Shown here one piece after another: positions 10,980 to 43,800 of a DNA stretch of 64,000 nt. The stretch spans positions 16,447 through 80,446 of the IMG/VR virus record IMGVR_UViG_3300032235_000437. One strand, 5' to 3'. Below the pieces are notes generated by a model. That model was not told the origin of the DNA. It worked only from the letters and a program-made list of their open reading frames with translations, and ran no database searches. Made by a program: the position numbers and the translations under genes. Position 1 is the first letter of the stretch, and each line of letters begins with the position of its first letter. This DNA comes from a virus.

Positions 10980-12370
10980 TGGCAGTAGACTTACAAAAAC
11001 TAGCTCTGCGTAGATTAATAGATACGCAGAGTAATGATCTATATTCACGACTATTAAACCAATATTTTACAGGAATTAACGCTACTTTATACGACAAGAT
11101 AAAACTGTTCTATAAAGCTAATGTTAGACTTCCTTCTACAGACGAAATTTTAGCGATCCGAAAAGATGCAGCGCTACAAGACTACCTAGAGAATCAAATT
11201 TACGCTGAAGATAACTCTTGTGAAGGTCTTCAAGACGAGTTCTTGATCGCTCAGTTACAAGATTACTATATCCGTGAAGAGACTATCTCATTCATGGATA
11301 AAATGATTGATAACCTAGACAGCTTAGAAAAAGTAGAAATTGTAGATAAACTACAAAACCACTTGCTTCATCTTAATAAAGCCATCCCACATGATGATGA
11401 ACTATACGACGTAGCAGAGCTTGACTTCTTCCCTAACGAAGAAGATTTTAAAATCTATCCATCAGGTCTATCACATGAATTTGATAGTATCAACGGCGGC
11501 TTCGCTACTCAAGAGCTAGTTCTTCTTGGTGGTCGTCGTGGTTCTGGTAAGTCTATTATCTCACTAAACCTAGCATTAAACCGTTTTCTTCAAGGAAATA
11601 CGGTATCATTTTTTACTATTGAAATGCGGTATAAAGAAGTTTATGACCGCGTACAATCGATCATTTCTGGAGTACCTTTCCTAGATATTTTCAGAAATCA
11701 ACTAACTGATATCCAAAAACTTCAGATGGCTAGAGCTAAGTTTGATGTATTCTATGAGAAATCAGATACGGTAACAAATCTATTAGGCGATCTTGAGAGA
11801 GAACGTGACTTTAAAAAGTTTGAGCAGCGTGTAAAAGCTGAAAAGCCTAAGCTGAAAGAGCACAGACTGTTTATGATCGACGATGAAGGCTTAACTCTGA
11901 ATCGTATTGATCACTATAACAACATGTTTGCTAGTAAGTATCCTAACTATAATATGAGTGTAGTAGACTACATCAATATTATTAAGCATGAAGATCAGAA
12001 AGACTGGAAGACACAGATTACTATTGCAGATAGTCTAAAATCCCAATCTAGAAAATATGATCTAACTATGATTTCACCTTATCAGATCGACGCTAGCGGT
12101 GAAGCTCGTTTTGCTAAAGGTATCCTAGATAGTGCTGACAGAAGCTTTAACTTCTTTCCTCCGCCAGAGAATGAAGACAGAAGCTTGAATAATAAAGTCA
12201 CAATTCATACTACTAAGATGCGTAACGGTAAACATATGAGTTTTGACGTACTAATGGATTGGGCTTGTGTAAAAATCAATCCAAACGTATCGGAAGTGAT
12301 TAATGAAAAACCACACGGTGTTGCAAAGTTTGGATCAGACAACGAAGCTCAAGGACCTAGAGATATATAA
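10979..12370 (+). CDS. DnaB-like replicative helicase (T5 D6-like)
   Basis: GRRGSGKS Walker A, FTIEM, VVDY, PYQ, KMRNG. Confidence 0.92.
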   Translation: MAVDLQKLALRRLIDTQSNDLYSRLLNQYFTGINATLYDKIKLFYKANVRLPSTDEILAIRKDAALQDYLENQIYAEDNSCEGLQDEFLIAQLQDYYIREETISFMDKMIDNLDSLEKVEIVDKLQNHLLHLNKAIPHDDELYDVAELDFFPNEEDFKIYPSGLSHEFDSINGGFATQELVLLGGRRGSGKSIISLNLALNRFLQGNTVSFFTIEMRYKEVYDRVQSIISGVPFLDIFRNQLTDIQKLQMARAKFDVFYEKSDTVTNLLGDLERERDFKKFEQRVKAEKPKLKEHRLFMIDDEGLTLNRIDHYNNMFASKYPNYNMSVVDYINIIKHEDQKDWKTQITIADSLKSQSRKYDLTMISPYQIDASGEARFAKGILDSADRSFNFFPPPENEDRSLNNKVTIHTTKMRNGKHMSFDVLMDWACVKINPNVSEVINEKPHGVAKFGSDNEAQGPRDI

Positions 12371-19200: not shown

Positions 19201-19899
19201 TTGTATAGATTCGCAGAAGAACTAGACCATAAGAATTTTAAAGACAAAAATCGAGTAGACTCTATTGATACCTACTGGGATGATGATTATGACCTAGCTG
19301 ACCCAGGTGGCTGGGAACATAGACATAATCACGAGGCTAATATTATAGCTGAGGTTATAGCGCAGTTAGGTATTAAAAAAGTACTAGAACTAGGCTCAGG
19401 CCCAGGAAACTTAGCTACTAAAATTATTGATAAGACTGGGGTAGATTATACACTAGTTGATGGTGACAGCGCATTGCGTGCTCATGCCAAGAGAAACAAT
19501 AAAGGTAAGTTGTTAGTAATCGATCTATTTGATTCTTTTGACACAACCAATCTTGATAGTGATTATGATCTTGTAGTAGCTAATGATTTCCTAGAACATA
19601 TCAGAAATCCTAGCTTGATACTAGAAAAAGTAAGAAATGATCTGACTACAGATACTTCTTGGTTCTTTCTATCGTCACCTAACTGGAGAATGAAACATCA
19701 GTTTTACTATCCTGGACTATTTGATTATGACAATCTTGTAAAATTCATGATACAAGAAGGCTATAAGCTACATTTTGTATTTGATTCCTGGGCAAACCAC
19801 GTACCAGTACGAGTTCCAAGATTAAATAGTGAATCTTCTTTACCAGAAGGCCATCTATTTGACTGGAACCACTATCTGCTCTTTAAAAAAGAAGTCTAA
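19201..19899 (+). CDS. Class I SAM-dependent methyltransferase
   Basis: VLELGSGPG, YDLVVANDFLEH, SSPN. Confidence 0.85.
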   Translation: MYRFAEELDHKNFKDKNRVDSIDTYWDDDYDLADPGGWEHRHNHEANIIAEVIAQLGIKKVLELGSGPGNLATKIIDKTGVDYTLVDGDSALRAHAKRNNKGKLLVIDLFDSFDTTNLDSDYDLVVANDFLEHIRNPSLILEKVRNDLTTDTSWFFLSSPNWRMKHQFYYPGLFDYDNLVKFMIQEGYKLHFVFDSWANHVPVRVPRLNSESSLPEGHLFDWNHYLLFKKEV

Positions 19900-19901
19900 G
19901 T

Positions 19902-19933
19902 AAAAAATAAGGCGGGGAGCAATCCCCGCCTTT
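19902..19933. terminator. Rho-independent terminator, stronger U-tract on - strand
   Basis: AAGGCGGGGA-GCAA-TCCCCGCCTT; - strand tail TTATTTTTT, + strand tail only TTT. Confidence 0.85.
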
Positions 19934-20111
19934 GAAACTCCGTTTCGGTGGTACAAAATAATAGGCACAAGTATCCCACCAAACGATGTGTAACTCCGTT
20001 ACACTATAAACGTGCTAATAACGCTACGCAAGCTATACGCATCCTGCGTAGCGTTGTTCAATAGCTGTGAAATATTGTGCGAGCTGTATTCGATCACGTA
20101 TTACAACTTGT
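19902..20111 (-). ncRNA. Putative structured non-coding transcript / origin-like element
   Basis: No long ORF; bounded by a - strand promoter and terminator; several hairpins, three with GGA loops. Confidence 0.45.
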
Positions 20112-20117
20112 GAATAT

Positions 20118-20146
20118 ATAATAGCATACTTTTAGAAAAGAGTCCA
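20118..20146 (-). promoter_or_regulatory. Antisense sigma70-type promoter
   Basis: On - strand TGGACT-17-TATTAT with extended TG (TGcTATTAT), pointing into the intergenic element. Confidence 0.55.
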
Positions 20147-20151
20147 AGTCT

Positions 20152-21114
20152 ATGATTAGAATTTTAAGTTCAGCTGACTGGCATGTTAATTTACACCGAA
20201 AAAAGATACCAGCTCATTGGCAGATGAGACGTTTTCAGATGCTTTTTGAGCGACTGCTAGAGTTGGAAGATCGGTGTGATGTACATGTTATTGCAGGCGA
20301 CCTATTCGATAAAGAACCAGATCCAGATGAGATCTGCTTAGTTCTTTCATATTTAAACTCTGTGCAAAAGCCAACACTAGTTATTCCAGGAAACCATGAA
20401 GCTACTTCAAAAGGCCGTACATTCTGGGAACACTTTAAGTTGGAGAATACAATTAAAAATCCACTAGTACACATCTTTACAGAAAATTCTCGATTTGAAG
20501 TGTTAGGACAAGGATTTTGTTTATTTCCATATGGCTCTGTACAGACTAATAATCTTCCGCACTATGTAGAAGATGATATACTTGTAACTCATATTCGTGG
20601 TGAAGTGCCTCCGCATATTACTGCTGAGTATGATTTTGAAAAGCTGCGTCCTTGGAAACTTGTGTTGTTAGGTGATCTACACTTTAGACATAAGTACAAA
20701 GACTATCCAGTTTACTACCCTGGTTCGCCGCTTAACACAACTTTTGATCGCGATGATAAGCGTGAATATGGAGTTGATATTATTACGATGCGCAGCATTG
20801 ACGACTATGCTGTTAACTTTGTTGATTTGAAGCTACCAAAGCTAATTCGTCGCACAGTATCAGTCAATCAGCAGATGGTTCAAGACATCTACCATCACGT
20901 TATCTATGAAGTAACCGGATCAATTGATGAACTAGCACTAGTTAAAAAGACTGATATGCTAGATAAAAAGATGGTAGAAAAGCCTACAACAGATGCTACT
21001 CTTGATTTAAAAGACAAGAGTTTGTATGAAGAACTTGAAATATATCTACAGTATATTAAGGTTTCTGACGCAGAATCAGTGTTAACCGCGTTTAAACAGT
21101 TAGGAATACAATGA
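20152..21114 (+). CDS. D12: SbcD/Mre11-like recombination nuclease (T5 D12)
   Basis: ADWH, GDLFD, GNHE, GDLH, YPGSP metallophosphoesterase motifs. Confidence 0.92.
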   Translation: MIRILSSADWHVNLHRKKIPAHWQMRRFQMLFERLLELEDRCDVHVIAGDLFDKEPDPDEICLVLSYLNSVQKPTLVIPGNHEATSKGRTFWEHFKLENTIKNPLVHIFTENSRFEVLGQGFCLFPYGSVQTNNLPHYVEDDILVTHIRGEVPPHITAEYDFEKLRPWKLVLLGDLHFRHKYKDYPVYYPGSPLNTTFDRDDKREYGVDIITMRSIDDYAVNFVDLKLPKLIRRTVSVNQQMVQDIYHHVIYEVTGSIDELALVKKTDMLDKKMVEKPTTDATLDLKDKSLYEELEIYLQYIKVSDAESVLTAFKQLGIQ

Positions 21115-28164: not shown

Positions 28165-28842
28165 ATGACAAAAACATATAACGAAATTATGAACGTACGG
28201 CTTATTGGCTATACTCAGCCTGTAGAAGACCTAGAAGAAGATATTAATGATGTACAAGAATTAATTGCCTTCTGCGCTAAAGTATCTAATCCACAACTAC
28301 AAGATGATTTTTCTCGTTCAGAGCGACTATTAAACTATCTTATTAAGCATAAGCACTGGAGTCCTTTTGAAATGGCAAGTGCTACTATGGAAGTTAGCAC
28401 AACTCGTGATATTGCTCGTCAATTCTTACGTCACCGTAGCTTTAGCTTTCAAGAGTTTTCTCAGCGCTATGCTAACCCAGCAGAAATGGGTGACATGTTT
28501 GTGCTACGTGAAGCACGGCTACAAGATTTAAAAAATCGGCAAAATTCTATTGAAATTCATGATGAAGCTCTACAAGCTGCGTGGAATGCTAAGCAGCTTA
28601 AAGCAATTGAAGCAGCGCGTAAAGCATATAACTGGGCTATCAAAAAAGGTATCGCAAAAGAACAGGCTCGCGTAGTCCTACCAGAAGGTAATACGATATC
28701 TAAACTATATGTACAAGGAACTATTCGTTCTTGGATTCATTACATCGAACTTCGTTCGGCAAATGGAACCCAACGAGAGCATATGGCTCTAGCTGTAGCT
28801 TGTGCAGAAGCGATCACAAAAATATTCCCTATGATTACATAA
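28165..28842 (+). CDS. thyX: Flavin-dependent thymidylate synthase
   Basis: HWSPFE, RHRSFSFQEFSQRY, AKEQAR.VLP, TQ.EH; start probably 28165 or 28189. Confidence 0.96.
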   Translation: MTKTYNEIMNVRLIGYTQPVEDLEEDINDVQELIAFCAKVSNPQLQDDFSRSERLLNYLIKHKHWSPFEMASATMEVSTTRDIARQFLRHRSFSFQEFSQRYANPAEMGDMFVLREARLQDLKNRQNSIEIHDEALQAAWNAKQLKAIEAARKAYNWAIKKGIAKEQARVVLPEGNTISKLYVQGTIRSWIHYIELRSANGTQREHMALAVACAEAITKIFPMIT

Positions 28843-40816: not shown

Positions 40817-43800
40817 TTATACCCCGATAGCTGTGATCATTATATTAGCTGTACTATTTGCTTGATATAGCCCAGTACCATCACTAGCGATAAGTTTAAA
40901 AGATATAGATTGATTTGATGCAGCAGTTGTTACAACAACTGATGGGTTAGCCTCAGCATCTATTTGGTTTAGTACAGCATAGCTTATAGCAGGTCTGCTT
41001 AAGAATTTTGCCGAACTTATATCAATAGTTTTAGGAGAAGCATCATATACTACAGTTGATGTAAATACTGTTTGTTCTTTATCTATACTATACCTAAATC
41101 TATCTAAAGTAAAGTCATATTCATCAGGTCTACTGTTGTTTACGATATATTTTATTTGGAAGTATCTAAAGGTTTTAGTTCCAACTTCGTAAGGAATCCA
41201 ACCATCACCTGAAGCACTAAACGCAGACACGTTAACGTTACCGTTAGCGTAGTATGGATTTTCTATAGTTGTTCTAATATAAGTTTGAGCAGTAACTGAT
41301 CCTAGAGTTCCAACATAGGTAGCAGTTCCTGGGTCGTTATACTGTAGTAAATCTACTAGCGTATAAGCGTCATTACCAGAAGTTACGTTTGCAAAAGTGT
41401 TTCCTCCAGTAGGAATACCGTTTGCATGATAGCTAGCTCCAAGCGCAATAGCATTAGCATTTATTAATCCTGCTATTAGCGCATATGAATTAAGATTTGC
41501 TGTATCACCATTGAATTGGCCATGGTTCCATATAGCCCAAACGTTACCGCTAGTGCTACCAGTCATCCAAGTACGATTATTAGCATCATAACGTGGTGAT
41601 ACTACGCTTGCATTTGAAAAACCTAGTACTCGACCTATACCGCCAAAACTAGTGTCAATTAGAACATTTGCAGCACTAGAAACATCTGTAACACCAGGTA
41701 AATAACGTTCATGTTGGTCATTATAGGTGCTCTGTATTTCCTGAGTAGCTTCGGTGTCGATATTTATCTGACCAGTAACAGCTTGACCAAAGTCACGAAT
41801 TTGTGTAATATATTCAGCACTCTCAGTAGCTAATAGGTTAGTAGGAGAACCTGCAACAGTACTCCAACCACTACTAGAACCGTTAGCATTATCTACTCTA
41901 CTGGTATAAGAATAGGCTATACCACTAGTATTAGAGTTTGCTCTAGACGGGAAGTTAAACTCAGTGGAGTTGTTATTAGGCAGTCCGTCAATAAAAATTT
42001 CAGAAGGGTTATCTTCGTTATAAGCAGCCACAGTTGTAGAACGTTGTGCACGAGTTGTAGTAATAACAGCACCAACAACACTGTCACTTAAGTTACCGCT
42101 AGTATCTTTTGTTCTAGCTAGGTAAGTGTAAGTACCATAGTTGTCAATTGGTACAGACTTACGAGCAGACGGTACAGATACGGTAACTAGCGGGCTAGCA
42201 ACTGTGAAGTTTTCTAGCGTAGCTGCCACTTCGCCAGGGAATCTATTGATGATAACTTCTTTTAAGTCTAAGTCTACCAGATCTCCAGAAGATCTAGCAT
42301 AGTTCCAGAAGAAGGTAATAACTTCGTTTTGTTGTCCACCAGTAAAACCTGTAATATTTTGAGGCTTAGCTGTTTTACCTACAATACTTTTCTCTGCTAC
42401 AGCGGTAACACCTCTTATGCTCTTGTTGAGCGGTGTAACTCTAATAGTTATAGCATTATCTTCTGACACCTGACCACGGTTTACGTTGTTGATAGTAAAT
42501 CTAATTTTACCATCAGCATCTACACCAGTAGCAGGAACTTTAACAGTATTGAACGCAGTTAGAGGAATACCGCCGTCATCACTACCTACGCTATCTACAG
42601 TAGATAGTTTGTAAGATATTTCATAATCTGTAACTTCTTGGCCAACGATATGATCAAAAGTACAAGTAATTCTAGTACTTACACCACCTGTTTGCTCACG
42701 ATACAGAGATTCCTGTATTTGCAGATTCTGTACTTTTTGTATAGGTAGCTGCTCAACTAATACACTCTTAGTAACATAAGGACTAAAACGTCCTAGCGTA
42801 TTTTTATTTCTAGCTTTGACAGTGGTTACGCCAAGAGGTAGCTCTGGTAGTTTTAGGTCATCTGTTAAGAAAGCCTTTTCAAAACTAGAGGATAGCTCTA
42901 ATGAATATACACCGCTATTAGCTAGTGAGAATATACCAGGATAAGCCTCGGTAGAATATACTAGCGTAAAAGTATTATCTTCTACATCAGTTACTGTTCC
43001 TACAGGATTTTGAGTTATGTTAATAAACTCAAAACCAGATAGATCTAGCTGAGGAGCGCTATCTAGCGTGATAATAAATATAGAATTACTAGTTAACGCT
43101 ACGTTATACCCAGCTGACGAAGTGTCATAAGTTGAGTTTACTACAGTAAAGGTATTGCCGTAGTTAACTTCAAGTCTATCACCTATTTCAATAGTTGGTA
43201 CAGTATACACATATGATTGTGCTCTAAAAGTAGTCTCACTAGGATTTTTTGTGTATACTACGTTAGAGGCTAGCGCAGAAGTTTTATTTAAGTTAACTGT
43301 GTATAGACCGTTACTCTTTTGAATGCCGTCTACAAAGAATTTAACGTCATTTACAGAGCGAACTTTGTTCGGTAACTCAACAGTAGTGACTGTATCAGAT
43401 AAATTACCTTCTACAACTTGATCTATTTCTGTACCTTTTACATAAACACTATTATTTGCATAGTAGTTTTTAGCTAGTACCTGATTTAAGCTTACGTAGA
43501 ACGGTGGTGTAGGTAGCGCAGAGCTAAGAGTGGTAAGCCCTGCGGCAGTATCTTGTATTACAACTGTATCTGTGGATAGATTATAAGAAGTTATATCTCT
43601 AGTCATAGAGGTAATATCAGACTGATAGCCTACAAAGTTTATTATGCCTTGTACATTTGCTTTTTCTCTAATAGGTATATTTATTTGATCAATACCTTTA
43701 AGATTAGGTACTGTTACACCGTCATTTACTTCTAGAACGTGTTGATTAAAGTTTCTATCTACGCATAGTTTTAATCCCTCAAGAGTTAGAGTTATGGACC

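Follow-up and report, generated by a model that had tools for sequence, protein, structure and literature searches.

The intergenic gap at positions 19900-20151 of the viral DNA studied here contains a unit that is well supported, from the comparison of related sequences, as a selected feature. We favour, with middling confidence, the reading that it is a new non-coding RNA (ncRNA) gene of ~210 nt, independently transcribed from the - strand, whose product would serve as a multivalent ligand or regulator of a protein other than CsrA. The window, meaning the whole stretch of DNA analysed, comprises 64,000 nt of the record IMGVR_UViG_3300032235_000437, and coordinates are positions in this window unless another locus is named; the related loci compared with it are numbered L0xx, L1xx and L2xx. 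In the initial annotation, the gap was read as an antisense unit of ~210 nt with repeated GGA-loop hairpins, acting either as a CsrA/RsmA sponge or as a replication origin. The comparative evidence bears out the antisense unit, with its own promoter and terminator and its triloop hairpins, but not the CsrA/RsmA sponge.

The gap (252 bp) separates a SAM-methyltransferase gene (19201-19899, + strand) from a gene encoding an SbcD/Mre11-like nuclease (20152-21114, + strand). It is the only gap of at least 150 bp in the early arm that lacks an ORF of at least 75 aa, in keeping with its earlier description as the largest gap there. All neighbouring early genes lie on the other strand from the unit, whose coding overlap does not extend beyond a stop codon. 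The source viral record (80.4 kb, 71% complete) has a T5-like layout, with ligase, D5-like regulator, helicases, primase, PolA, gp32-like SSB, SbcD, SbcC and ribonucleotide reductase, after which the late arm follows on the opposite strand. PolA and SbcD of the window phage share ~40% identity with their counterparts in T5-like phages that infect Proteus, Vibrio and Salmonella. The element is housed in the replication/recombination module, between the gp32-like SSB and SbcCD, with the helicase, primase and PolA genes farther upstream.

Relatives were gathered through SbcD searches of viral and metagenome contigs and through DNA patterns, giving ~45 related loci, and a profile and then a covariance model (R1) were built from 13 close sequences. 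The element was detected in 30 of the ~45 loci, corresponding to ~25 distinct sequences from uncultured T5-like phages. The covariance model matches every family member on the strand opposite sbcD, and the position is constant, 3' of the SSB and glycosyltransferase-like genes and 5' of sbcD; in the window's own record the element is single-copy. Among the same 11 phages, 28% of the columns of the element are invariant, compared with 10% of four-fold degenerate sites in sbcD, and SbcD is only 59-75% identical across phages that keep the element's conserved blocks and hairpin tips.

The element is absent at this site from a sister clade (L012-L017, L195-L202 and L209), whose SbcD proteins show 57-62% identity and whose sbcD is overlapped by the gene upstream, and from the sbcD site of Vibrio phage Thalassa. 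It was not found in two partial sister-clade records that are 33-42% complete. In cultured T5-like phages (Vibrio phage Thalassa, T5), the corresponding position shows neither a comparable gap nor an annotated feature, and no match was obtained when the locus was compared by blastn with 50,697 phage records. Rfam yielded no match at the gathering score across the whole window, and nothing relevant at E<=10 in 19850-20200. Pattern scans of viral contigs with AACTNCGTT-N-AACTNCGTT and with GTAGCG..AGCTGT returned mostly chance loci, and complementarity to possible trans targets within the phage (11- and 12-mers) occurred at chance level only. Phage T5 has an unannotated gap of ~470 bp (NC_005859 59074-59544, equivalent to L225 15075-15545) directly 5' of T5.108, a gene annotated as 'replication origin binding'.

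The two edges of the element coincide exactly with changes in gene content. A methyltransferase gene lies upstream of it in the window, L001 and L005 only, a 562-aa gene takes the place of the glycosyltransferase-like gene in L009, L054, L039 and L190, and extra ORFs of 113-238 aa stand between the element and sbcD in L054, L039, L206, L010 and L191; L009 and L054 carry identical elements followed by different genes. These changes favour a reading in which the unit is a cassette-boundary or insulator module without a dedicated RNA function, comparable to the promoter/stem-loop boundary cassettes of T4-type phages. Its terminator and convergent promoter would stop or dampen read-through between swappable early-gene cassettes, and its hairpins would be recombination seams. 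However, a seam leaves unexplained the ~50 nt of near-invariant sequence, the second conserved box and the strict conservation of the hairpin tips described below, and the element occurs once instead of being scattered among cassettes. We regard this reading as improbable.

The predicted promoter lies at the sbcD-proximal edge. The promoter scan calls a -35 box TTGGACT at 20141-20147 (- strand), which can be aligned as TGGACT 17 bp or as TTGGAC 18 bp from the -10 hexamer, and an extended -10 box TGCTATTAT at 20118-20126 (- strand), with the hexamer at 20123-20118 and a TG ahead of it. The scan thus places at 20146-20118 the TGGACT-17-TATTAT promoter with extended -10 that had been proposed for the - strand, and the 5' end of the RNA would fall at ~20111. 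Both hexamers, GAGTCCAA (-35) and ATAATAGCA (-10) as read on the + strand, are unchanged in all 10 sequences of alignment A1, and the spacer between them is variable. Synonymous sites of sbcD 30-60 bp from the promoter vary among sequences whose hexamers stay invariant, and L039 and L054 retain the hexamers though their downstream gene is not sbcD. In L006 the scan returns the same -10 call as in the window. In the diverged members, as read from the sequences, the TTG is kept at the same spacing (TTGCCT, TTGGTC, TTGGCC, TTGCTA), giving the pattern TTGnnn-17/18-TGnTAnnnT, and some of these members have weak -10 boxes.

A second, stronger-looking promoter-like site on the - strand, TTAACA-17-TAAAAT (10/12), lies at 20189-20161 within sbcD codons 4-13, and L006 and L188 have it too. 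In other relatives, synonymous changes alter its hexamers, and it therefore looks like a coding by-product, in this case of the conserved peptide ILSSADWHVN; it was set aside as a promoter.

At the distal end, the terminator scan places an intrinsic terminator at 19899-19932 (- strand), consisting of a 10-bp GC-rich stem (19932-19909) followed by a U tract (19908-19899). The scan scores the - strand only (19932-19909, tail ATTTTTT), in agreement with the earlier observation that the better U-tract is on this strand. The terminators of relatives have different stems, with position and U-tract side unchanged, as found by scans of L188 and L011 and by folds or sequences of the L006 type, L189 and L208. 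A distal-end hairpin with a - strand U tract is present in ~19 of 23 family members, in which the + strand tail is poor; the diverged L010, L206, L191 and L193 have no recognisable terminator. Both promoter and terminator are predictions from consensus matches. A predicted promoter and terminator of its own on one strand, conserved in relatives, and the lack of an ORF are features of an independent bacterial-type sRNA gene.

Other strand signals come from the hairpins themselves. The loop motif is asymmetric, being G-N-A when read on the - strand but U-N-C on the + strand. Within the modelled pairs, 11 G.U and 3 A.C wobble cells were counted, favouring the - strand, a count that is suggestive only since the alignment was fitted to the - strand model; the unfitted count adjacent to perfect stems is balanced (11 vs 9).

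Three hairpins are present in the window as originally located, at 19934-19946, 19988-20004 and 20036-20050, with - strand loops GGA, GGA and AGGAU. On the + strand they read GAAAC-TCC-GTTTC, GTGTAAC-TCC-GTTACAC and TACGC-ATCCT-GCGTA, respectively. Hairpin 1 (19934-19946, - strand GAAAC-GGA-GUUUC) has a tip, ACGGAGU, that is invariant in the 13 core sequences, and its stem shows compensatory changes (CAAAC/GUUUG in L002, GGCAC/GUGCC in L005) with 97% of cells paired. In hairpin 2 (19988-20004, - strand GUGUAAC-GGA-GUUACAC), UA is replaced by CG at columns 96/106 (7 vs 6 sequences), and the loop among close relatives is GGA, GUA, GAA or AGA. Hairpin 3 (20036-20050, - strand) is UACGC-AGGAU-GCGUA in the window; this pentaloop corresponds to a GGA, GAA, GUA or GUU triloop in relatives, and double-sided changes occur at 3 of its 6 pairs in the 13 core sequences and at all 6 family-wide. 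Further compensatory variants include GUAAC/GUUAC to GCAAC/GUUGC, as well as GACAC/GUGUC and GCCAC/GUGGC.

Comparison with related phages, proposed earlier as a check, thus shows compensatory changes in the hairpin stems. Across the 13 core sequences, double-sided changes affect 8 of the 22 pairs and the proportion of paired cells is 90.9%, a level reached in 0 of 500 shuffles. Family-wide, the values are 17 of 22 pairs and 90.2%, in an alignment that was fitted to the model. The number of hairpins per unit is three in the window and ranges from one to seven in relatives, and their spacing is unphased.

The loops tell a different story from the one first proposed. In a census of 88 triloop hairpins, AC/GT closure was found in 55, and the loops comprised GGA (33), GAA (13), GUA (11), GCA (4), AGA (3) and AUA (3); R-N-A loops account for 67 of the 88, with 61 GNA and 6 ANA. 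On the sequences compared, the conserved feature of the hairpins is the tip AC-GNA-GU, and not GGA.

Several side observations concern the copy number and spread of such hairpins. L010 carries three 32-bp tandem repeats (2311-2420), each containing CTAAAC-GAA-GTTTAG, the unit of box D plus hairpin is duplicated in L188 (2230-2360), and L191 contains a partial second copy of the element (542-833). Three more AC-RNA-GT tips, in CGAAC-GAA/AAA-GTTCG hairpins, occur on the - strand of the window phage, at 28746-28758 and 43359-43371 of the window and at 11217-11229 of the record; at least both window copies lie inside coding regions. Genome-wide, hairpins with AC-RNA-GT tips number 8, vs 1.5 expected from shuffles.

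The loop data bear directly on the sponge reading, in which GGA loops would titrate host CsrA. The loops in the window (ACGGAG, ACGGAG and CAGGAUG) do fit the ANGGA and CAGGAUG motifs, and the unit is self-contained like CsrB-type genes. However, homologous loops swap GGA for GAA, GUA, GCA, AGA or AUA, close relatives included, and L010, L188 and L191 have no GGA loop at all. The known sponges CsrB, RsmY and RsmZ carry many GGA motifs, whereas three GGA loops occur in the window and relatives have between none and three. Nor does any CsrB/Rsm-type Rfam model match 19850-20200 at E<=10. Since relatives do not keep the GGA loops and no Rfam match was found, the CsrA-sponge reading is not supported, and we consider it very improbable.

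The probable host also bears on the CsrA question. The phage encodes a permuted (two-piece) tmRNA, located ~1.6-2.0 kb before the window start (record C1:14445-14870) and also found at L211:129-523. It scores 105.7 bits with alpha_tmRNA (cut-off 50) and 112.5 bits with tmRNA_permuted, and its tag reads ...ANDNFAPVSLALAA. The tag-coding pattern derived from the ANDNFAPV tag occurs elsewhere almost only in genomes of Alphaproteobacteria (12/13). The alpha-type tmRNA together with the distribution of the tag codons makes an alphaproteobacterial host likely. BLAST with the tmRNA matched only the 33-nt acceptor arm and therefore gave no host resolution. CsrA-family proteins (PF02599) are encoded in 60 of 301 sampled genomes of this class, so an alphaproteobacterial host does not by itself exclude CsrA; csrA is absent from all three genomes with phage-like tmRNA tag codons. 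The class genome samples used for the csrA count and the tmRNA BLAST include one unpublished genome (G041), on which none of the present conclusions depends.

Outside the hairpins, conservation is concentrated in two blocks. The most conserved part is the 5' block A of ~50 nt at ~20096-20048 on the - strand (part of 20048-20111, which includes the predicted 5' end), with the sequence CGAAyAC..CGCACA..CACAGCU..AACGCUAC; most invariant columns of alignments A3 and A4 lie there, and it is recognisable even in the most diverged members. A small - strand ORF (…SHNISQLWNNATK… / …THSRAQLFDNATT…) recurs through this block. It was rejected as a gene because its start lies within the -10 box and it has no ribosome-binding site, and because a 1-nt indel between subclades breaks the frame within conserved sequence, in which wobble positions are invariant. 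Block A is accordingly conserved as nucleotides. Block D (19962-19980) reads TAGGCAmAA-N4/5-CCCACy on the + strand and GUGGG..UUGUGCCUA on the - strand, on which it is followed by an AU-rich linker of variable length. A small GGC/GCC stem in block D is weakly supported, with 80-82% of cells paired and no double-sided changes. As read from the sequences, the boxes at 19962-19980 and 20055-20085 share GCAmAr-N4-sCAC in inverted orientation. The 5' box of the L006 group contains GCACAG-N4-GCACAG, a direct repeat with a 10-bp period that looks like a protein-binding site.

The region folds markedly better than dinucleotide-shuffled sequences on either strand (z of -5.2 for the - strand and -6.0 for the + strand; 0 of 200 shuffles as good). 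The recurrent structure is nevertheless local: neither RNAalifold nor single-sequence folds gave a conserved global RNA fold, minimum-energy structures differ among homologues, and only the local hairpins recur and covary, with no covarying long-range helices. The longer competing stems noted earlier (20017-20030/20045-20058, with one T.G, and 19941-19954/19971-19985) exist in the window and appear in minimum-energy folds, but the bistable stem is not conserved. This stem (20017-20030/20045-20058), which overlaps hairpin 3, was rejected because the L006-L009 subclade carries a deletion of the 5' arm. A long-range helix joining boxes A and D, 14 bp long in the window, was likewise discarded, as changes in box D are uncompensated in L001, L003, L004 and the L006 group and the helix is not maintained.

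The main rival to an ncRNA gene is a replication-linked DNA element, either a transcription-activated origin or a single-strand initiation site. Transcription from the - strand promoter would open the duplex, and the displaced - strand DNA would fold into SSB-resistant C-GNA-G mini-hairpins marking the places where the phage primase and helicase enter or prime, with the conserved boxes as initiator-binding sites. C-GNA-G triloops are best known as very stable DNA mini-hairpins, and occur at the G4 complementary-strand origin, in RSF1010 ssiA and in N4 early promoters (PMC13037366; PMC3201870). The tips here follow the rule for such DNA hairpins, in which a C-G pair closes a loop with G at position 1, A at position 3 and any base between them, as the counts of closure (55/88) and GNA loops (61/88) reflect, and the hairpins may fold as DNA or as RNA. 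On this analogy, the C-GNA-G triloops would fit a DNA-level role equally well. The location inside the replication/recombination module favours an origin too, as do the shared inverted motif of the two boxes with its 10-bp internal period, the iteron-like tandem amplification of hairpin units (3 x 32 bp in L010, and the L188 duplication) and the lack of a conserved global RNA fold.

Several points weigh against an origin. An R-loop primer needs no conserved terminator on its own strand, which releases the RNA. The element is missing at the same site in the sister clade (SbcD 57-62% identical) and is thus not present in all phages sharing the replication module. No conserved DnaA box was seen by eye, no homologue of the T5.108-type origin-binding helicase was found by local tblastn in the 80 kb of the window phage's record, and the hairpin spacing is not phased. 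The terminator and the sister-clade absence weaken this rival, and we judge it unlikely, though worth keeping in view. Among established origins, T4 oriF/oriG and the T7 primary origin combine a promoter amid the replication genes with downstream DNA that is structured or AT-rich, and they have no dedicated terminator. The element resembles them in having its promoter within the replication gene region, and differs in having a terminator and in being absent from the sister clade.

The DNA sites with d(C-GNA-G) hairpins (G4, RSF1010 ssiA, N4) share with the element the loop rule, the closing pair, stems of 5-7 bp and the strand asymmetry. At those sites the hairpins work as single-stranded DNA, and the primase or virion polymerase that uses them is known, whereas the hairpins here sit within a promoter-to-terminator unit of a T5-like phage. 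N4 suggests a further reading, in which the - strand hairpins would be template-strand promoters from which a phage RNA polymerase transcribes sbcD and sbcC rightwards. In the N4 promoter geometry, - strand hairpins would indeed drive + strand transcription. T5-like phages, however, use the host polymerase. The match to N4 early promoters lies in the 5-7 bp stems, the 3-nt GGA or GAA loop and the C-G closing pair (PMC13037366). Against it, no T7/N4-like RNA polymerase (PF00940) was found in 80 kb of a record that is 71% complete, a weak argument since the control was silent; the two giant ORFs are tail fibre and tape measure, and the hairpins sit together at one site instead of preceding each operon. 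N4-type promoters are in our view highly unlikely here.

For the ncRNA gene that we favour, the following sequence of events is proposed. A host sigma-70-type RNA polymerase would start from TTGGAC-18-TGCTATTAT at ~20111, and transcription would stop at the intrinsic terminator at ~19902, producing an ncRNA of ~210 nt. From its 5' end, the RNA would comprise the conserved 5' block, three short hairpins separated by the second conserved box and the AU-rich linker, and the terminator hairpin with its U tail. The hairpin stems would be free to vary, while the tips would be fixed as A-U and C-G pairs closing a G-N-A triloop. The repeated identical tips, together with the 5' block, would be bound by a phage or host protein that is not CsrA. 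We infer here that the promoter and terminator are used, that the RNA has these ends, that the hairpins form in RNA rather than DNA and that a binding partner exists. A more specific and tentative proposal, which we think rather unlikely in this exact form, is that the unit encodes a phage decoy or scaffold RNA. Its array of AC-GNA-GU tips would capture a non-CsrA nucleic-acid-binding protein early in infection of an alphaproteobacterium, working like the CsrB-type sponges with a different recognition code.

The unit may be compared with two kinds of known RNA. The OOP RNA of phage lambda is short, has a sigma-70 promoter and an intrinsic terminator of its own, and runs against the flow of the neighbouring early and replication genes; it adjoins the replication module, and a role as replication primer was at one time suggested for it. 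OOP, and also sar of P22, resemble the unit as short antisense-type units with their own promoter and terminator (predicted ones in the present case) beside the replication module. However, OOP is 77 nt long and acts through its overlap with the 3' end of cII, whereas the unit here is ~210 nt and carries repeated triloop hairpins. CsrB, RsmY and RsmZ are similar in being self-contained sRNA genes with a series of local hairpins that share a loop motif and vary in number. They differ in that the motif here is AC-GNA-GU instead of A(N)GGA, with GGA dispensable, 1-7 copies and no Rfam match. By analogy, the unit may be sponge-like in action while standing outside the CsrB/Rsm family.

To our knowledge, T5-like phages have few described ncRNA genes, and alphaproteobacterial phages have none. 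The unit is a testable candidate: its ends are predicted, ~25 natural variants and a covariance model are available, and its sharply defined AC-GNA-GU motif can be mutated. On either reading, RNA or DNA, the CsrA label is corrected before it spreads. If the RNA reading is true, the unit would give access to an RNA-protein interaction of early infection; if instead the DNA reading is true, this phage group would gain its first origin-like element defined at the sequence level.
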